Positions 3,002 to 56,982 of a DNA stretch of 64,000 bases are shown here, piece after piece. Source of the DNA: a virus. The stretch lies in the IMG/VR virus record IMGVR_UViG_3300027317_000001, positions 1,898-65,897 of that record. One strand, given 5' to 3'. How positions within the stretch are numbered: position 1 is the first letter of the stretch; every line of letters starts with the position of its first letter. A model generated the notes under the pieces. It made no database searches. It had not been told where the DNA came from and worked only from the letters and a program-made list of their open reading frames with translations. The position numbers and the translations under genes were made by a program.

Positions 3002-3048
3002 TTGACGCGCTCCCCTCCCTTCAAGGGGAGGGGAGGGGAGCACGTCAA
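3002..3048. mobile_element. minimal palindromic IS200/IS605-end remnant (head-to-head ends)
   Basis: TTGACGCGCTCCCC...GGGGAGCACGTCAA, each arm resembling the GGGGAG(G/C)ACGTCAA ends at 10611, 17241 and 41536. Confidence 0.5.
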
Positions 3049-3128
3049 TGTCTCCAAGCGGCTCGATCAGCTCAAAAGCCAGTAGAGGGCGAATGGGTTC
3101 CTCCCGCCGGAACCGCGTTAGTGGGAAG

Positions 3129-5509: not shown

Positions 5510-5680
5510 ATGGTCGCATATGTGGAGCCGGTAGTGGATCGTTTCGGGTTCCTTTACTACGAGATCCGATACGAGGCGAATGGTAAGATCACGGCGGGTC
5601 CCCGGTATTGCTACCGGGAGGTGGCGATCCAGGTTCTCCAGAGCTTGGCTAAGAACCTCGGGTGCACGATTCGCACTTGA
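5510..5680 (+). CDS. small hypothetical protein (56 aa, absent from the ORF track)
   Basis: AGGAG RBS; translates MVAYVEPVVDRFGFLYYEIRY...LGCTIRT*; stop is the TGA within the TTGA end of an IS605-type right end. Confidence 0.6.
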   Translation: MVAYVEPVVDRFGFLYYEIRYEANGKITAGPRYCYREVAIQVLQSLAKNLGCTIRT

Positions 5681-8794: not shown

Positions 8795-8833
8795 CGGATT
8801 CCTCCCCCGCCTTTAGGCCGGGGAGGAATCCGG
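8795..8833. repeat. GC-rich hairpin resembling an IS605-type end / possible terminator
   Basis: CCGGATTCCTCCCCCGCCTTTAGGCCGGGGAGGAATCCGG; core like 56951-56982. Confidence 0.5.
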
Positions 8834-10574: not shown

Positions 10575-10611
10575 CGGCGAGCCCCAGTCTTCAGGACGGG
10601 GAGGACGTCAA
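10575..10611 (+). mobile_element. orphan IS200/IS605 right-end remnant
   Basis: GAGCCCCAGTCTTCAGGACGGGGAGGACGTCAA; last 14 nt match the 41523-41536 end. Confidence 0.6.
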
Positions 10612-16839: not shown

Positions 16840-17244
16840 ATGCATTATCACACATACCATTGGATCGGGCAGGTATCGGAAATGCGGGACCGATATCGGC
16901 GGCCAACACCACCGCCACACGATCCCGGCATATTCCTCTACTCCAAAGTTCCACCCCTAGTTTTGGGTGATTGGCTGCTCCGGCCAATAGACCAGATCAA
17001 AGCAACATACACTGAACCAGAAGACGTCCTCGCCTGGCTTGAAAAGCACTACCTGGATATGCCGTCACTTCTTCATCCGGACCGAGTAGGATTGGAAGAG
17101 CGGCTGCAAGCGGCTGAAGAGGACATCCGCCAAGGCAAAGACGTGGACTGGTCTTTCTGGCTCAAAGGCCAGGGATGGGTGACCATAGCCGCCATCGCCT
17201 GCCCTAACAAGATCGTCAGGCACCCCTGCCCACTAGGGAATTGA
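16840..17244 (+). CDS. actinobacterial-type hypothetical protein
   Basis: AAAGG RBS before ATG 16840; resembles proteins recalled near DUF397/XRE loci (unverified). Confidence 0.6.
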   Translation: MHYHTYHWIGQVSEMRDRYRRPTPPPHDPGIFLYSKVPPLVLGDWLLRPIDQIKATYTEPEDVLAWLEKHYLDMPSLLHPDRVGLEERLQAAEEDIRQGKDVDWSFWLKGQGWVTIAAIACPNKIVRHPCPLGN

Positions 17245-17291
17245 CGTGCTCCCCGGCCTTCAGGCCGGGGATTCAGCCTGTGCCGCGCGTG
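17241..17291 (-). mobile_element. orphan IS200/IS605 right end
   Basis: reverse complement GCACGCGCGGCACAGGCTGAATCCCCGGCCTGAAGGCCGGGGAGCACGTCAA nearly identical to 41485-41536. Confidence 0.75.
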
Positions 17292-17343
17292 CAGGGAAGG
17301 GTCCTTCCGCATCTACCTGAAGGATGGTAAGGGTCCCCGGGAT

Positions 17344-17646
17344 GTGGTGGACAACCCACGCCACCTGAGCGCGGCCATGCGGAAGCTCAGGCGAGCCCAG
17401 CGCGCCCTGTCCAGAACCCAGCCTGGCAGCAGGCGGCGCGAGCGCGCCCAGCGGAGGGTGGCCCGTTTGCACGCCCTCGTTGCCCAACGGCGCGCCACCT
17501 GGCTGCACCACATTTCCAAGCGCTTGACCACGAGCTTCGGCACAATTGTTATCGAAGACCTGGATGTTGTTAACATGACCAGGTCGGCGCGCGGTACGCG
17601 TGAAAACCCTGGGCGGAACGTCCGCGCCAAGGCTGGGCTCAATCGA
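17344..17646 (+). pseudogene. tnpB: internal tnpB fragment (bridge helix and RuvC-II)
   Basis: LRRAQRALSR..PGS.RR..A..RVARLH..VA..R..WLH..SK.L....IVIEDL.V.NM..SA.GT...PG.NV.AKAGLNR; lacks RuvC-I and RuvC-III. Confidence 0.85.
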
Positions 17647-17690
17647 AACTGTACCGGGGCTGAAGGCCCGTTTGATTGGAAGGATCGGTC

Positions 17691-18026
17691 ATGACCGAAT
17701 TCAAGGCAGGAGATCTCGTTCGGACCGCTGGTTACTCGATCTCTGGAAAGATCCGGTCGATCTTCCGGCTCCGGGGGATCTGGTTCGCGGACGTGGACAC
17801 GGGCGAGATGTACAACCGGCGAATCCCCCTCGATCAGCTCCTCCTGATTGAGCATTGTGATTACTCGGAATGGATCAGGAACATATCGGGCGAGGTCGTC
17901 AAGGCAGTGCCCTGCCGGAACCGGCCGGAGATCCGGCTGAACGGTGGCTACTGGCTTTGCGGGACGTGCTATCGCAACAGAAGGAAGGTCAAGAGTGACC
18001 AAGGCGAGGAAAGCGAGGAAGCATGA
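17691..18026 (+). CDS. hypothetical protein
   Basis: GAAGGA RBS before ATG 17691; C-terminal Cys pairs. Confidence 0.6.
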   Translation: MTEFKAGDLVRTAGYSISGKIRSIFRLRGIWFADVDTGEMYNRRIPLDQLLLIEHCDYSEWIRNISGEVVKAVPCRNRPEIRLNGGYWLCGTCYRNRRKVKSDQGEESEEA

Positions 18027-39537: not shown

Positions 39538-40159
39538 CCCACGTGTGAATAGGGTGCTGGCTGATCACCAGGGTTGGGCGATGGGCGTTGTAACGCCGCC
39601 GAAGAAAGGAGATCAACCAGGCGAGCTCCTTGTTGCTCGCTGAGTGTTCTTCCTCACCGAACCCATCCAAGGCGAGAAGACTCACCTGATGCGCCCTAGT
39701 GTAATGCCGTCTATGCCACTCGGTGAGCTCTTCGGCGTTCTTCTTGATAAGTTGTCCAAGTTTGATGAGATTATCCGCTGTTATGTAGCAAATGCTGGCG
39801 TCATAACGCTTGTGAATCTCCATGAGGACAGCACAAGCCAGTGCGGTCTTACCAGCACCCTCGGTACCCACCAGAGCGGCACCGACGCCGATCAGCCTGG
39901 GATTCGCGAGATCAAACCGGCGGCGGGCCGGAAACGTGTCAACGAACGTCTGTGCCCAGCTGATCACCCGGCGAGCGTGAGAATGCTCAGCGGTCAGTCC
40001 CTCAAGGGACCGAATCATCTGATCAAGCGATATTCCCCTATACCAGCTAGGGATTCCCGCATACTCCCAGCGAAGGTTGTAATCAATGCTGTGATCGCGA
40101 ATGTCAATCCTCGTCATCGCCTGATTCTTCATCCGTTTCGTCCAAGCCCCAGTATTCAC
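39449..40159 (-). CDS. DnaC/IstB-like helicase loader ATPase
   Basis: G.EGAGKT, LLALD.FG.E, RRYN..RPT.VIS. Confidence 0.8.
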   Translation of the reverse strand: MNTGAWTKRMKNQAMTRIDIRDHSIDYNLRWEYAGIPSWYRGISLDQMIRSLEGLTAEHSHARRVISWAQTFVDTFPARRRFDLANPRLIGVGAALVGTEGAGKTALACAVLMEIHKRYDASICYITADNLIKLGQLIKKNAEELTEWHRRHYTRAHQVSLLALDGFGEEEHSASNKELAWLISFLRRRYNAHRPTLVISQHPIHTWGEYSSSLPKFAETAFPQVSLAGWVLPYAS

Positions 40160-41144
40160 GGAATGCTTGCGACGTGGGGTCCTGCATGATGGACTGCCGC
40201 TTCATCTCCTGGAGCACTGCCCTCGCCTTTTCGGCAAGCCTGACCCGGCATGACAAGAAGTGCTTCCACGGAGGTACGCCCTGCCGGGCAAGATCGTCTG
40301 GCACAACGTAGAGGTCGATCATTGTCTTGATCAGTTCCGGGGTGATCCGGTCTTCAGGTCTAGCGACCTTCTGGCGCATCCACCGGTTGAAGGTGGTGGC
40401 CAGCGCACCGATGTTCAACGTATCCGGAACCCACGCCAGAGCGTTCAGCCCGGAATCGAACTTCTGGATGTGATCCCGGAAGTAGAGGGCAAGTTCCCGG
40501 CCATTACGTGGTGTAGAGCCCTCAGAAGCTTCCTGAGGCTCGTTCTCGCCTCCCCATAGCTCTTTATCCGGATCTATCACCACGGTGGTCTCTCCGGCCT
40601 TCTGAGCCCTTCCTCCGGGTCTCTTCGAAGAAGGCCTTCCTCTCCTCCGACCGCCGCCCTGCGGCGTGTCGGAAGAAAAGGAAAGTACGTTAGTACTTTC
40701 CTTTTCGAACGCATTAGAACTACTAGTACTTATATAAGTACTAATACTTATATTCGGATCCGGCTTTTCCGGATCCGGAACTTCCGGATCCTGAATCTCC
40801 GGATCCTGAAAATCAGGATCCCGGGTAGTTACTACTTCTCGGGGCTTCCGGGTGGTCCGATCCGCGTCCACCACATACCGGGTACGCTTCAGGTTGCCAT
40901 GCTCGTACATCTCAACCAGATCGATGTACCCGGCATCCGCAAGCTCTCTTAGCGCTTTGTACAAGCTGTCCCGGCCTTCGCGAAACCACTTGCGAAGCTC
41001 CTCAATGTCGCACTGCCACCCATCTGGCCGGGAGCGGAGGAAGCAAAGCACGCCCCAGGCGCGGGCTGAGATCACACCAGGTTCAAGAAGTCCGCTGGGG
41101 ATGATGGTGGGGATATCACGCCTCTGAACAGTTACGACAGACAC
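40104..41144 (-). CDS. replication initiator (HTH) with internal iterons
   Basis: ISARAWGVL.FL.SRPDGW.....L....EGRD....AL.EL...GY; DPxxx x5 linker; directly upstream of the loader and DnaB. Confidence 0.8.
   Translation of the reverse strand: MSVVTVQRRDIPTIIPSGLLEPGVISARAWGVLCFLRSRPDGWQCDIEELRKWFREGRDSLYKALRELADAGYIDLVEMYEHGNLKRTRYVVDADRTTRKPREVVTTRDPDFQDPEIQDPEVPDPEKPDPNISISTYISTSSSNAFEKESTNVLSFSSDTPQGGGRRRGRPSSKRPGGRAQKAGETTVVIDPDKELWGGENEPQEASEGSTPRNGRELALYFRDHIQKFDSGLNALAWVPDTLNIGALATTFNRWMRQKVARPEDRITPELIKTMIDLYVVPDDLARQGVPPWKHFLSCRVRLAEKARAVLQEMKRQSIMQDPTSQAFREYWGLDETDEESGDDED
40680..40822. repeat. five GGATCC-core iterons at a 15-bp period plus an AT-rich AGTACT palindromic tract (lambda-type ori candidate)
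   Basis: GGATCC at 40756, 40771, 40786, 40801, 40816; AGTACTTATATAAGTACT adjacent. Confidence 0.7.
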
Positions 41145-41202
41145 TAAGGCAACCCCAATTGCTCAGATCGCCAAGTACTGATAGGATTCAGCGCTAGTTT
41201 AG

Positions 41203-41392
41203 CGGCACAAGCCCGCGGCCTTCAGGCCGCGGTAAGCCGCACCCTCACCGCTGGGCTAGCGGAGAGGTAAAACGCCTGTGGAGCTGGTGTAAGACCTTAA
41301 GGGCTTAAGCCCGGCGGGCAACCGGCTGTGAAGCAGGAAGATCCAACCCGCAAGGGTTGGAATCCCCCTCGTAAACGAGGGAAGGACGTCAA
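41203..41392 (+). mobile_element. 190-bp non-autonomous IS200/IS605 element (left end plus omega-RNA-like right end)
   Basis: follows TTTAG; left hairpin CCGCGGCCTTCAGGCCGCGG; GTGGAGCTGGTGTAAGACC..GTGAAGCAGGAA..GGAATCCCC..GGACGTCAA. Confidence 0.75.
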
Positions 41393-41536
41393 CTCCCAGG
41401 TCTGCGTGTAGAGCCTTGGACGGCCCCAAGCCCCTGCACCGGTCGTGGACCTGCCCCTGCGGGGCAGGAAGCCACAGAAGTGTCGCATGCGCGGCACAGG
41501 CTGAATCCCCGGCCTGAAGGCCGGGGAGGACGTCAA
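41393..41536 (+). mobile_element. second IS605 right-end / omega-RNA-like segment in tandem
   Basis: ends ATCCCCGGCCTGAAGGCCGGGGAGGACGTCAA; last ~50 nt match the reverse complement of 17241-17291. Confidence 0.7.
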
Positions 41537-41551
41537 AAGTTTGGAGGGCCG

Positions 41552-43546
41552 ATGAGGGATAGACGCCGCTTCAATACCCGCGAGAAGGTCGCGCTCTATC
41601 TCGCCGCTGAAGGCAAGTGCACCAACTGCGGCACAGAACTGGGCCCGGGCTGGCACGCTGACCACGTCATCCCCTACTCGCGCGGCGGCAATACCGACGT
41701 GATCAACGGGCAGGCCCTCTGCCCAACCTGCAATATCAAGAAGGGATCGAGCGTGTCCTACAGCGATACTTTCAAGCCGCGCCGATTCCAGCGCGAAGTC
41801 ATCAAGACGGTCCTCGACGGCATGGCCTCCGGTCGCGACGTCTCGATCGTCCTGGCCTGCCCCGGCTCCGGCAAGACCCTCGCCTACCAGGCCGCGGCCA
41901 CCTACCTCTACCGGGAAGGCCTCATCGACTACGTGGCCGTGTTCGTCCCCCGCGTCATCCTCGCCCGCCAGTGCGAGACCTCATGGATCCACCGGACCGC
42001 GACCGGCTTCGACGGCAACCACACCCTGTTCGACCCGCGCCGCAGGATGGGCCCGATCCGGCATGTCCTCAACAACCCGCCGCTTACCCCACCCGGGCAG
42101 CACGGCGTCGGCTTCGTCACGACCTACTCGGCGCTGGTGTCCAACCCGGTGATCTACGAGGCGTGGGCCAAGCAGCACCAGGGCCGGTTCCTCCTGGTTG
42201 CCGACGAAGCCCAGTTCTGTGGTGCCAGCGACGAACGCAACTCCGGGACCCGGGCCGGGGCGCTCATCGAGACGCTGCACCAGTACGCGGCGCACACACT
42301 GCTGCTGACCGGCACGCCCTACCGGTCCGACGGCAACCCCCTCATCCTCGCCGACTACGACGAACCGAACGCGGACGGCAAGCGCCCCCTCCTTTGCCAC
42401 GCTGAAGCGACCTACTTCGACGGGGTCGCCGACGGGTACCTGCGCCGGTTCGAGGCGACCATGCACGACGCCCGGGTGCGCTGGCGGCAGATCGACAACA
42501 CCGCGATCGAATACGACCTGTCCGCGGACGGGGGAAACCTCGCCGATGTGCTCCGCAAGCCGGACGTGTGGCAGCCGATCGTCGATATGGTCGTGGACGC
42601 GGTCAAGGACAAGCAGAAGATCCACCCCGATTACCGTGGCCTGATTTCCTGCATGGAGCAGAGGGACGCCAAGCAGGTCGCCTCCTACCTCCAGCAGGCA
42701 TACCCCGGGCTGCGTGTTTCTCTGGCCATTTCCGAAGACGGCCCGGAGGCTGAGCGGGCGCTGCGGGACTATCAGGTCAAGGGCGGCGACATCCTTGTCA
42801 CCGTCCGCAAGGCCTTCATCGGCTACGATTGCCCGCAGATCACCGTGGTCGGTATTCTCACCCATTACCGGGACCCCGGCCACCTGATGCAGCTCGTCGG
42901 CCGTGGATTGCGGACCTGGAGCGGGGTCGAGGCCCGCTCGCAGTCGTGCCGGGTCATCGCACCTGATGACCCGCGGATGCAGAAGTTCATCGAGGTCATG
43001 CGCGGCGAGTCTGAGGAAGGCCTTCGCGAGCGGCGTCGCCGTGAACAGGAGGAAGCCTCCCGCGGGCCCGGTGCGCCCTCGCAGGCACCGCTGGGATGGG
43101 TCGAGTCTGCTCATGCCACGACCGCCCGCGTGGTCAGCAACGACATTGAGCTGGACAACGACGAGCGCCTCCTGTACGAGGCGATCAAGCGTGAGATCGG
43201 TGCCGCCGATGATGTGAGCGTGCTGGCCAAGTTCGCTGAGGCGCTCAACCTGCGTCTCAACCGGTCGAAGCCTGAACCGGAGGTCCTACGGGCGGAGCAC
43301 AAGAGCACGCCGCTCACCGAGCAGGAGCAGATCGAGGCCATCAACGCCCGGGTGGCTGAGGTCATCCGCAAGGGGTTGGCCGACCGGGGCATCCTGCCCT
43401 TCGACCCCGGCTATAGCGAGCAGGTCAAGCGCGCCACGTACGCGGTCAACTCGGTCGCGGGGCGCAAGGCTGGTGAGTGCCGCACGGTCGAAGAGGCCGA
43501 GGCCCGGCTGCGTGCGGCGCTGTCGCTGTGGGAGCGGGTTTCGTGA
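41552..43546 (+). CDS. HNH endonuclease fused to an SF2 (DEAD/Res-like) helicase
   Basis: CTNC..HADHVIPYSRGG...NGQALC..CNIKK; GSGKT, DEAQ, LTGTPYRSD, GYD, QLVGRGLR; GGAGG RBS before ATG 41552. Confidence 0.85.
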   Translation: MRDRRRFNTREKVALYLAAEGKCTNCGTELGPGWHADHVIPYSRGGNTDVINGQALCPTCNIKKGSSVSYSDTFKPRRFQREVIKTVLDGMASGRDVSIVLACPGSGKTLAYQAAATYLYREGLIDYVAVFVPRVILARQCETSWIHRTATGFDGNHTLFDPRRRMGPIRHVLNNPPLTPPGQHGVGFVTTYSALVSNPVIYEAWAKQHQGRFLLVADEAQFCGASDERNSGTRAGALIETLHQYAAHTLLLTGTPYRSDGNPLILADYDEPNADGKRPLLCHAEATYFDGVADGYLRRFEATMHDARVRWRQIDNTAIEYDLSADGGNLADVLRKPDVWQPIVDMVVDAVKDKQKIHPDYRGLISCMEQRDAKQVASYLQQAYPGLRVSLAISEDGPEAERALRDYQVKGGDILVTVRKAFIGYDCPQITVVGILTHYRDPGHLMQLVGRGLRTWSGVEARSQSCRVIAPDDPRMQKFIEVMRGESEEGLRERRRREQEEASRGPGAPSQAPLGWVESAHATTARVVSNDIELDNDERLLYEAIKREIGAADDVSVLAKFAEALNLRLNRSKPEPEVLRAEHKSTPLTEQEQIEAINARVAEVIRKGLADRGILPFDPGYSEQVKRATYAVNSVAGRKAGECRTVEEAEARLRAALSLWERVS

Positions 43547-44214
43547 TGGCCCGCGAGGTTTCGTTCCCGCACCTGTCGGAGGAGCAGATGCGGGTCATCC
43601 GGGCGGGGGAGGCGTTGCACCGTGATGGTGCCTCCCCGGCCGGGGCGCTTGAGCTGCTGGCCGCGATCGTTGAGGACCGCACCTGGGAGCGCCTGGCGGA
43701 TGCTAAGGGCCGCTCGTTCAAGGGCCGGTTTCGTGACTTCGTCGAGGCCCGGTCGCCGTACGGGCTTGGTTACGATCCGGACCAGCTCCCGAAGGTGCTT
43801 CAGCTTCGGCATCCGCACGAGTCGGTGCCGAAGATCGCCTACCGCATGGCTGCCATGCGCGAGCAGGTGAAGCGGCTGCTGCTCGAGGAGATCCCGGAGT
43901 CGCAGAGCCACGGTGGCGATCGGAGATCCAACGAAGTTCAAGTTCGTGTCACGAACTTGAAGGCTCAGACGGACACCGCCGAGTACATCGTCGCCCGGTT
44001 GAAGCGGGACGCGCCCGAGCTCGCCGAGAAGGTGATCCGTGGCGAGCTCACCCCCAACGCCGCCGCCCGGCAAATGGGTTGGCGAAAACCCCGCATCGTC
44101 GTCTCTACCCCAGAAGCCGTCGCCAAAGCCCTCCGCAAGCACATGACCCCCGACGAGATCCAGGTCCTCGTGCGCCTGCTCTCACAAACAGACAGCAAGG
44201 AGGCGCGTATCTGA
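43546..44214 (+). CDS. helicase-associated hypothetical protein (ParB/KorB-like C-terminus)
   Basis: TGATG coupling; RLKRDAPELAEKV..GELTPNAAA..MG pattern. Confidence 0.6.
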   Translation: MAREVSFPHLSEEQMRVIRAGEALHRDGASPAGALELLAAIVEDRTWERLADAKGRSFKGRFRDFVEARSPYGLGYDPDQLPKVLQLRHPHESVPKIAYRMAAMREQVKRLLLEEIPESQSHGGDRRSNEVQVRVTNLKAQTDTAEYIVARLKRDAPELAEKVIRGELTPNAAARQMGWRKPRIVVSTPEAVAKALRKHMTPDEIQVLVRLLSQTDSKEARI

Positions 44215-44295
44215 TGGGCTGGGCACGCATCGACGACGGTTTCGACGACCACCCGAAGGTGCTCGCGCTGCTCGACATGGAGGACGGCGCATTGT
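44214..44295 (+). pseudogene. 5' stub resembling an actinobacterial prophage replication protein
   Basis: AAGGAGG RBS, MGWARIDDGFDDHPKVLALL; coding-like composition ends after about 26 codons. Confidence 0.55.
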
Positions 44296-44410
44296 GGTTG
44301 TGCCGCCGCCCCCCCGCAGGTGCGCGGTAGTTTGGCGGCGCAAGCCCCGGTCTTCCGGGGAGCACGTTAATTCCTTCCCGCCTAAAGGCAGTGGCACCAA
44401 TACACCTCCA

Positions 44411-44451
44411 TCTAGCCCCCGGCCTCCTGGCAGGCCGGGGGCTAGCTTTTT
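44411..44451. terminator. hairpin terminator at a convergent junction
   Basis: CTAGCCCCCGGCCT/AGGCCGGGGGCTAG plus T run. Confidence 0.75.
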
Positions 44452-45625
44452 AGGCGCTCAACAGGTGGGTGGGAACCTGGTCCCTCGGCACAATCTTGCG
44501 CACCGTTCCCTTACGCGGCCGACCGCGCCCGGCCAGTGCGACAATGTTGCCTTCCTCATCGCACAGCACCGCCACCTCGTCATTCTTGGGGCGCGGGCTG
44601 CCGATCTGCTGCGCAGATTCCCTAGACGCGGCCTGCGCGGCAGGTTCCGGATCATCCGGCATCTGCGCAATGTAGAGCGCCAATTCCAAGGTGAGAGGGC
44701 AGTAATCCACAAACGATTCCATGAAGAGGGCGGCATTCCGAAGATCGGCGGCTGCAACGATCTCCAGCACAGAGGACAGCACCTTCTTCAAAGGAACCGT
44801 AGGCTTTGTTTCTCCCAGGTTGAGCTTAGCCGCCCAATCCGGGCGCATCTGAGCAAGGTGAGCGCGCACCTCGCTCGTGAGCTCACTCACATCCCACGCT
44901 GCGATGTTCCGGTAGTTCTCCAGGTATTGCAGGGCGAAATACAGAACATGGGAGAGCGGCTCTTCGGGTTCACCTTCAGTAGGAAGACCGCGCATGAAAG
45001 GCTGCTCGTCATCATCCGGCTGCTCTTCCTTCGGCTCGGTCTCCTGCGCTTCGCCGGAGCGCTCGCCCTTCCCAGAAGGAAGATTCTGCTCCAGTTCCTC
45101 TTCCGTAGGAAGAACAAGCTCGTCTAGCCCTTCACTGGCGATTTCCAGGATAGGGAACCCGGCGTCGTACGCGGTGACCAGCAGCTTCTCCGTAAACGGG
45201 TCTGGTGCGTCCTCTTCCGGTCCCCAAGCCAAGATCACGTAAGGGTCGTACCCTTCATCCTTGGCATCGTTCAAGGCGGCCACCAGTGCATGGGGGATCT
45301 CATCCGGCGAGTCCACCGTGTACATGCAAGAGGCAAGCGGGGTGAGAATCTTGTCGATCTTCTCAGGGTCCTCACTGGAAAGGGTGATGATGTTGCAGGT
45401 CAGCCCATAACCAATCACCAGGTCGGCTGCCGCCCTAACCAACTCGTTATAGGTGCCCCCGGTAATCGGCAGGATCATCAGGGGATCAACCGGCTGATTG
45501 CTCTTTATGCGCAGCCAGTCACCCAGCAATGACACAGCGTGGTCGTATGTGATTTCGCCGCTTCCCGCGACGATCGCGGCGATACGTTCACGCGTCTTAG
45601 TCTGATCCGTCTTTGAGGCAACCAT
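44450..45625 (-). CDS. hypothetical protein
   Basis: 391 aa, GGGAG RBS, C-terminal RGRPRKG basic motif. Confidence 0.75.
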   Translation of the reverse strand: MVASKTDQTKTRERIAAIVAGSGEITYDHAVSLLGDWLRIKSNQPVDPLMILPITGGTYNELVRAAADLVIGYGLTCNIITLSSEDPEKIDKILTPLASCMYTVDSPDEIPHALVAALNDAKDEGYDPYVILAWGPEEDAPDPFTEKLLVTAYDAGFPILEIASEGLDELVLPTEEELEQNLPSGKGERSGEAQETEPKEEQPDDDEQPFMRGLPTEGEPEEPLSHVLYFALQYLENYRNIAAWDVSELTSEVRAHLAQMRPDWAAKLNLGETKPTVPLKKVLSSVLEIVAAADLRNAALFMESFVDYCPLTLELALYIAQMPDDPEPAAQAASRESAQQIGSPRPKNDEVAVLCDEEGNIVALAGRGRPRKGTVRKIVPRDQVPTHLLSA

Positions 45626-56680: not shown

Positions 56681-56933
56681 TCGGGATCCTGATCACCTGC
56701 CCGATCTTAAGATTCCATGGTTCAATAATTTCCGGATTGGCATCCAAAATGTACCACCACAAATCCTTATTCTTCAGAAATTTGTGCGCCAAAAAATCAA
56801 TCCGATCGCCTTCTTTGATTCGGTAGTACGTGAAGTTGAATGTCCAGTCCGGGTTTGGGCGGAGCTCACGACCGCGAACTACCCCGCCACGGAACGGCGA
56901 GGAAACCGGTGCTATACCCTCATAACGATTCAT
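56667..56933 (-). CDS. LysM/gpX-like baseplate protein
   Basis: YRIKEGDRIDFLA.......WW.I.DANP......L.IGQVIRIP. Confidence 0.85.
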   Translation of the reverse strand: MNRYEGIAPVSSPFRGGVVRGRELRPNPDWTFNFTYYRIKEGDRIDFLAHKFLKNKDLWWYILDANPEIIEPWNLKIGQVIRIPNVLA

Positions 56934-56946
56934 CGGATCCCTCCGA

Positions 56947-56982
56947 GGAGACCCCCGCCTTTAGGCGGGGGAGGAAGCCAAG
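56947..56982. mobile_element. IS605-type end hairpin remnant in the tail operon spacer
   Basis: CCCCCGCCTTTAGGCGGGGGAGGAAGCCAA between stop 56986 and the RBS of the next gene. Confidence 0.5.

Follow-up and report, generated by a model that had tools for sequence, protein, structure and literature searches.

Palindrome-associated transposable elements (PATEs) are protein-less derivatives of the IS200/IS605 family of insertion sequences (ISs) (PMC3119063, PMC10055086, PMC4615843). PATEs carrying omega-RNAs have been described, and their use of TnpB in trans has been proposed (PMC10055086). The Rfam family HgcC, the UUCA tetraloop and a PATE-derived RNA were linked to the 3′ ends of tnpB genes by Gomes-Filho et al. 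(PMC4615843). In ISDra2, the functional scaffold is 116 nt long and contains a pseudoknot that pairs positions −5 to −3 with positions −105 to −103 (PMC10097598). Here, we analyze a 64,000-nt window of the IMG/VR viral record IMGVR_UViG_3300027317_000001 (positions 1,898 to 65,897), in which an initial annotation had described two tandem omega-RNA-like modules. Judged by its sequence, module 1 is a protein-less IS200/IS605-family mini-element of the PATE or MITE (miniature inverted-repeat transposable element) type with a complete omega-RNA scaffold, and module 2 is a truncated stub of a tnpB element. The modules are an already described and common kind of selfish DNA, and not a new guide system.

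The window comprises most of a 67.8-kb record with an estimated completeness of ~66%. The phage has a GC-rich genome and resembles actinophages; it is found in metagenomes from compost and bioreactors, including runs X2–X6, and has only distant relatives among isolated phages. Both modules are located in a 408-bp gap between divergent genes, an HTH_36 gene on the left and an HNH and SF2-helicase gene on the right (Table 1). Except for ~60 nt of left flank and a 15-nt spacer, the entire sequence between the two start codons is IS-derived.

Module 1 (41198–41392) is ~190 bp long. The TTTAG motif, the left-end hairpin, the tnpB-3′ scaffold and the TCAA at 41392 that the initial annotation had recognized were all found, and the right-end similarity to a known phage element corroborates them. 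Specifically, positions 41243–41368 (126 nt) share 87% identity (E = 1e-34) with the terminal part of the annotated IS605-orfB of Thermobifida phage P1312 and ~100 nt beyond it. Only ~9 terminal tnpB codons are left in module 1, fused straight to the left end (LE), while the rest of tnpB has been deleted. Behind the tnpB stop codon, a structured stretch of ~125 nt runs to the terminus ..GGACGTCAA. The TCAA at this terminus is invariant in 54 aligned right ends (REs), and their flanks diverge immediately beyond it. Module 1 therefore pairs a full-length scaffold match with a genuine left end, which is the basis for its classification: it has hairpins at both ends, no coding capacity, a motif-specific insertion site and a TCAA terminus.

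The left end has counterparts elsewhere. The P1312 IS605-orfB element is also present on the P1312-like viral contig L015, which carries a second gene-less element with an LE and an RE (L015:6436–6641), located after GTTAG and between divergent open reading frames (ORFs). Over 39 nt, the LE of module 1 and that of this element (L015:6440–6477) share 90% identity. The LE hairpin and GGTAAGCCGC are common to both mini-elements, and the left end of the P1312 IS is similar in layout. TTTAG also precedes a related left end that is carried by a contig from metagenome run X2. Within L015:6400–6660, the two arms of an inverted repeat, GGTTTACCG / CGGTAAACT, enclose the mini-element in their loop. P1312 proper lacks the mini-element and has an unrelated insert of ~150 nt there (L136:3265–3416), so that the site looks like an insertion hot spot.

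We found no sign that module 1 has moved as a unit: its LE–RE junction occurs only at its own locus, in this phage and in the sister strain L140. When the 20-mer spanning this junction was searched in metagenome contigs, only five unrelated chance matches were found beyond the L140 locus, and the LE consensus pattern had no match in viral contigs. The LE and RE hairpins of module 1 are also unlike each other in sequence, which is not the case in the P1312 and L015 elements; this dissimilarity argues against recent mobility.

We evaluated the scaffold with a model of its family. From actinobacterial genomes, mainly Streptosporangiales and Micromonospora, 120 matches to the conserved scaffold core were collected, and a covariance model (R1) was built from the alignment of 54 non-redundant right ends. 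For the R1 family, RNAalifold predicts 23 base pairs, of which 8 show compensatory changes. The match of module 1 to R1 covers model positions 1–170 with 127 bits (E = 5.6e-28) and no broken pairs, inside the range of elements with an intact tnpB (100–166 bits), and the module 1 fold has a z-score of −4.6. A covariation-backed scaffold lies directly 5′ of the transposon boundary in module 1 and is missing from module 2. Scaffolds without a full tnpB are not confined to this phage; 18 of the 91 actinobacterial scaffolds with enough upstream sequence have none (5 cases) or a partial one (13 cases), and an LE hairpin resembling that of module 1 is present in at least one copy from Nocardia. In the phage's habitats, the same repeat family is found in metagenome contigs at 10–20 times the phage's depth, and donors of TnpB elements are therefore abundant there.

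Module 1 resembles PATEs in its two ends with subterminal hairpins, the absence of a gene, the TCAA terminus, the insertion at a short motif and a scaffold that would need TnpB in trans. Unlike PATEs, it is present as a single copy in the phage genome and its LE and RE hairpins are dissimilar. It shares a stem layout, with compensatory differences, with the tnpB-only, IS1341-type IS605-orfB element of P1312 (KT021004, 29.4–30.7 kb). However, P1312 retains a 369-aa tnpB and its upstream region, compared to the ~9 codons in module 1, whose terminal hairpin and left end are of another subtype. As in the omega-RNA (reRNA) of ISDra2 (PMC8612924, PMC10097598), the sequence of the scaffold extends over both the 3′ end of tnpB and the right end, with a guide that would come from the flank; the module 1 family has no detectable sequence similarity to ISDra2. 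By analogy with ISDra2, we infer that an invariant GAC within GUAAGACC, located ~100 nt upstream, could pair with the GUC at −5 to −3. Because both strands are invariant, this pseudoknot has no covariation support in the family. The modules are also similar to the HgcC RNAs and sotRNAs of IS1341-type tnpB elements in being RE-derived with a GC-rich terminal hairpin (PMC4615843), and the actinobacterial family consensus has a UUCA loop followed by GGAGGA.GUCA. Neither module is an HgcC member by the Rfam criterion, as the scores against RF00062 (29.8 bits for 41441–41549 and 12.5 bits for 41271–41405) are below the gathering cut-off of 50 bits; no Rfam family reached its gathering level anywhere in the window, and HgcC was the only one to come close.

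TldR proteins are TnpB-like, nuclease-dead repressors whose guide adjoins the tldR gene and matches a distant target. At the present locus, the would-be guides match only their own flanks in the window, and no TnpB-like domain was found in the record. TldR guide RNAs are likewise TnpB-derived scaffolds and, according to a preprint, are used beyond transposon retention (bioRxiv 10.64898/2026.09.22.753285).

Module 2 had been taken for a second, different scaffold that ends at 41536. It does end in TCAA (41533–41536), but only 41464–41536 is right-end sequence, and the remainder consists of tnpB zinc-ribbon codons. This 73-nt zinc-ribbon piece has 67% amino acid identity to residues 393–425 of the L012 TnpB (tblastn, E = 2e-5), while the right-end tail is 92–95% identical to the REs of tnpB elements on L009–L013 and L050. 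The pieces have collinear blastn matches to L012 and L050 (Actinomadura keratinilytica), and the two halves are 123–129 nt further apart in the intact elements of L050 and L012. The undeleted joining sequence is present on a contig of metagenome run X2. Against R1, module 2 scores 44.7 bits, with 43 model positions replaced by a single nucleotide. The last tnpB codons are gone, as is the 5′ half of the scaffold with its stems P1, P3 and P4 and the invariant block GUAAGACC. Because the putative pseudoknot partner that we place within GUAAGACC, on the ISDra2 analogy, has been deleted, it is very unlikely that module 2 could give rise to a competent guide RNA.

The right end of module 1 abuts the first recognizable tnpB codon of module 2, and the reading across their junction, ..R*F-SSQVC, resembles the conserved DRWFPSS(K/Q)xC of TnpB. 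This reading would suggest an insertion of the mini-element inside a tnpB pseudogene. However, shuffled controls are as similar to tnpB genes as the left flank is, whether the comparison is unanchored or anchored, and a deletion ending exactly at the right end of module 1 is equally possible.

The would-be guides are the local flanks, and the initial annotation had given them correctly as CTCCCAGGTCTGCGTG for module 1 and AAGTTTGGAGGGCCGATG for module 2, the latter covering the ribosome binding site (RBS) and ATG of the helicase gene. It had also proposed to look for guide matches beside a TTAG-like transposon-adjacent motif (TAM); run on the window and on viral contigs, this search returned none beyond the guides' own flanks. 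Guide 1 has no other TAM-flanked match in the window, and its matches with three mismatches occur there at chance level only. Guide 2 has no exact match in viral contigs, and its three-mismatch matches in the window are at chance level and lack a TAM. The predicted empty site of module 1 (TTTAG + CTCCCAGG...) has no exact match in viral contigs. At its own locus, the guide 2 sequence is preceded by a right end (..GTCAA) instead of a TTAG-type TAM, and guide 2 therefore cannot target itself. Its overlap with the helicase RBS and start codon is a chance landing of the parent element, and there is no mechanistic basis for its importance.

Table 1. Features of the two modules, their neighbouring genes and further transposon remnants in the window
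Feature	Position	Strand	Evidence or remark
TTTAG, TAM-like target motif	41198–41202	+	Sequence; directly 5′ of module 1 left end
Module 1 left end	41203–41243	+	Subterminal hairpin 41213–41232 (stem-TTCA-stem), then GGTAAGCCGC
Complete right-end/omega-RNA scaffold, module 1	41229–41392	+	Match to covariance model R1; TCAA at 41389–41392
tnpB last codons (..LTAGLAER, stop TAA 41268–41270)	41244–41270	+	Alignment with P1312, L009 and L012 tnpB 3′ ends
Would-be module 1 guide	41393–41408	+	Itself tnpB-derived (codons SSQVC)
tnpB pseudogene fragment, zinc-ribbon region (module 2)	41393–41465	+	One frame reads SACRALDGPKPLHRSWTCPCG; small frame-breaking indels
Deletion junction, ~125 nt lost, GC microhomology	41464–41465	+	New 8-bp hairpin 41450–41468 created
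Module 2 right-end tail, last 73 nt of a different RE	41464–41536	+	Terminal hairpin 41507–41526, TCAA 41533–41536
Module 2 flank (would-be guide 2)	41537–41554	+	Spacer, RBS GGAGGG 41543–41548, ATG at 41552
HTH_36-domain gene	40104–41144	−	Pfam; heads replication block, with DnaB, primase and SNF2 helicase genes downstream
HNH-SF2 helicase gene	41552–43546	+	Pfam HNH + ResIII/DEAD + Helicase_C
Solo right-end tail	17241–17300	−	50/52 nt identical (96%) to module 2 tail; R1 32.9 bits, last ~55 positions
Terminal IS-end hairpin + GGAGGACGTCAA only	10582–10611	+	R1 26.3 bits, last ~40 positions; LE or RE unassignable
tnpB pseudogene fragment	17317–17730	+	Central RuvC part, ~130 aa, in-frame stop

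Relatives of the phage differ in whether they carry the modules. In the sister strain L140, which comes from another metagenome and is 96.8% identical over 4.2 kb (window 41017–45192), both modules are kept nearly unchanged. The closest relative of the helicase, on L004 (90% amino acid identity), has an unrelated upstream region in which homology begins at the RBS and ATG, and there is no R1 match or module on L004. The modules are also contained in, or bridged by, contigs of two other studies. One contig of run X6 joins a right-end terminus directly to sequence like 41136–41190, and another lacks the 5 nt right after 41536, which suggests further structural variants of the module junction in related phages.

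Overall, we consider it probable that the modules are nested or adjacent inert transposon debris in a permissive gap, and that module 1 is still potentially guide-competent in trans. The 408-bp gap would be a graveyard of IS200/IS605-family (TnpB-type) transposons acquired from the actinomycete host community. The host is likely to be a Streptosporangiales actinomycete, since the nearest right ends come from Actinomadura keratinilytica, Thermoactinospora rubra and Microbispora. Module 2 would be the rest of an element that carried tnpB and inserted with its right end 15 bp in front of the helicase start codon; the 5′ part of this parent is missing, and an internal deletion of ~125 nt has fused its zinc-ribbon codons to the last 73 nt of its right end. 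Module 1 would be a younger, complete mini-element located behind TTTAG, directly against the module 2 stub. The phage probably has no dedicated use for either module, and their persistence may reflect the tolerance of the divergent gap to insertions. The modules would be, at most, passively transcribed within the helicase leader. A usable module 1 omega-RNA would be formed only with a cognate TnpB from a host IS or from a co-infecting P1312-like phage, and its guide activity would serve the retention of module 1 and not the phage. The initial annotation had offered simple debris as one of its readings, which agrees well with module 2 and with the tails at 17241 and 10611, all of which have lost the 5′ scaffold half including GUAAGACC.

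Several observations weigh against the debris explanation. IS-end hairpins are located at several gene boundaries (10611, 17241 and 41536) and could be reused as terminators or leaders. The record is ~66% complete, so a tnpB may sit elsewhere in the phage. L140 has a single substitution in the 392-nt intergenic region compared to 1.85% in the helicase gene, where the changes are mostly at third codon positions, and this near-identity of the modules could reflect constraint. However, the low-divergence tract reaches the adjoining ends of both genes (3 differences per 600 nt, compared to ~4 per 200 nt further on), and a recent recombination or co-conversion therefore explains the near-identity as well. 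Because low divergence reaches beyond the modules into coding sequence on either side, and the comparison is between two strains, we do not read it as a signature of selection. Elsewhere in the alignment, L140 and the window have 56 differences within 43817–44016, compared to ~2% across the helicase gene; this segment, within the next gene after the helicase, is either hypervariable or has been replaced.

It is unlikely that module 1 is instead an active trans-guide. Under this mechanism, transcription from the left flank would produce an RNA with which a borrowed TnpB cuts alleles without the mini-element, and repair would copy module 1 back, so that the mini-element would home or be retained and would, as a side effect, act as a weapon against sibling phages that lack it. 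The intact scaffold without broken pairs is consistent with such activity, and so is the low-divergence tract centred on the modules, which would fit co-conversion. The mechanism is established for IS605 elements, with the use of TnpB in trans proposed for PATEs (PMC10055086), and both the same metagenomes and thermophilic Streptosporangiales are very rich in related TnpB elements. However, module 1 lacks the part of the P1312 LE between the hairpin and the tnpB start, the expected location of a tnpB promoter, and a relaxed promoter scan of the gap produced two candidates only, both weak (7/12 matches each). No empty-site allele or other target was found in the viral contigs or the window, the unlike LE and RE hairpins speak against recent mobility, and the partner gene is not in the record. 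Consequently, the guide function in trans that the initial annotation had put forward is possible for module 1 only, by virtue of its intact scaffold, and there is neither a recognizable promoter nor a partner nuclease in the record to go with it. If module 1 does use a borrowed TnpB in infected cells, it would represent a natural case of RNA-guided homing from one phage genome to another. It is a long shot that the phage itself maintains module 1 as a working trans-guide on host or P1312-like TnpBs, cutting sibling genomes without the insertion; in that event, repair-driven spread would shape the competition between phage strains, and the low divergence would be a co-conversion footprint.

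Co-option of the IS-derived DNA is decidedly unlikely, whether as promoters of the divergent operons or as a structured leader that stabilizes or tunes the helicase mRNA, with the GC-rich end hairpins acting as terminators or RNA-stabilizing elements. Because the gap is nearly all IS-derived, the promoters most likely lie in or beside IS-derived DNA. The strong predicted folds (z-scores of −4.6 and −3.4), the near-identity in the 3%-diverged strain L140 and the position of the end hairpins next to a stop codon (10611, 17241) or an RBS (41536) would also be consistent with a regulatory role. Even so, consensus promoter and terminator scans of the gap found none above the shuffled expectation, the L004 helicase works with a completely different upstream region, and the positions of the hairpins are equally explained by insertions that survive only in intergenic DNA. 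Finally, it is barely credible that the scaffolds are decoys (sponges) for a host TnpB or TldR, or guide cassettes for a TldR-type repressor. One intact scaffold plus several fragments without a nuclease gene is a general fact that agrees with this role, which had been raised in the initial annotation, and we found nothing else in its support. By analogy with ISDra2 (PMC10097598), the protein-binding parts would be present in one copy only, and there is a single full copy and no array. The record has no tldR or tnpB gene, and the guides match nothing beyond their own flanks.

The value of the debris explanation lies mostly in annotation: a thermophilic-compost actinophage has been hit repeatedly by TnpB transposons of the host community, and transposon debris makes up the greater part of the gap that separates its helicase gene from the divergent replication operon. 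At the left border of this gap, the HTH_36 gene starts with GTG in this phage and with ATG at the same position in L140.

Remnants of the same kind are scattered across the window, whose 64 kb contain at least six IS-end remnants, together with two fragments of tnpB pseudogenes. The initial annotation had counted about five potential scaffolds. We found one complete scaffold together with the short tails at 17241 and 10611. The end claimed at 5677 does have a minus-strand hairpin followed by ..GGTCAA, but it has no R1 match at E ≤ 10. The absence of an intact TnpB was confirmed, as a search for PF07282 (TnpB) throughout the 67.8-kb record returned no match. The pseudogene piece at 17317–17730 has 38–41% identity to the P1312 and L009 TnpBs (tblastn, E = 2e-11 to 2e-13) and stands head-to-head with the right-end tail at 17241–17300. 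The long minus-strand ORF at 17313–18002 probably represents a GC-rich shadow frame. On the minus strand, the 14-nt sequence CTTCCCTGCACGCG occurs at ~17299 and again at ~18099.

Weaker hairpin remnants are located at 56894–56981 and 3002–3062. Isolated remnants of this kind cannot always be assigned to an LE or an RE, because the left end in the L012 subfamily is itself nearly right-end-like: ~40 nt upstream of the tnpB ATG, it has the form GGAAT-hairpin-GGGGAGGAAGTCAA and provides the tnpB RBS. The remnant at 3002–3062 is a long palindrome (TTGACGCGCT..hairpin..AGCACGTCAA); whichever strand is read, it resembles the tail of an IS right end, and R1 matches it with 17.4 bits (minus strand) and 11.2 bits (plus strand). 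The IS-end-like hairpins at 56952–56981 and 8804–8831 share the form CCCCCGCC-TTTA-GG.., followed by GGAGGAA. The hairpin at 56952–56981 resembles the P1312 left end and has the terminus CCAA instead of TCAA.

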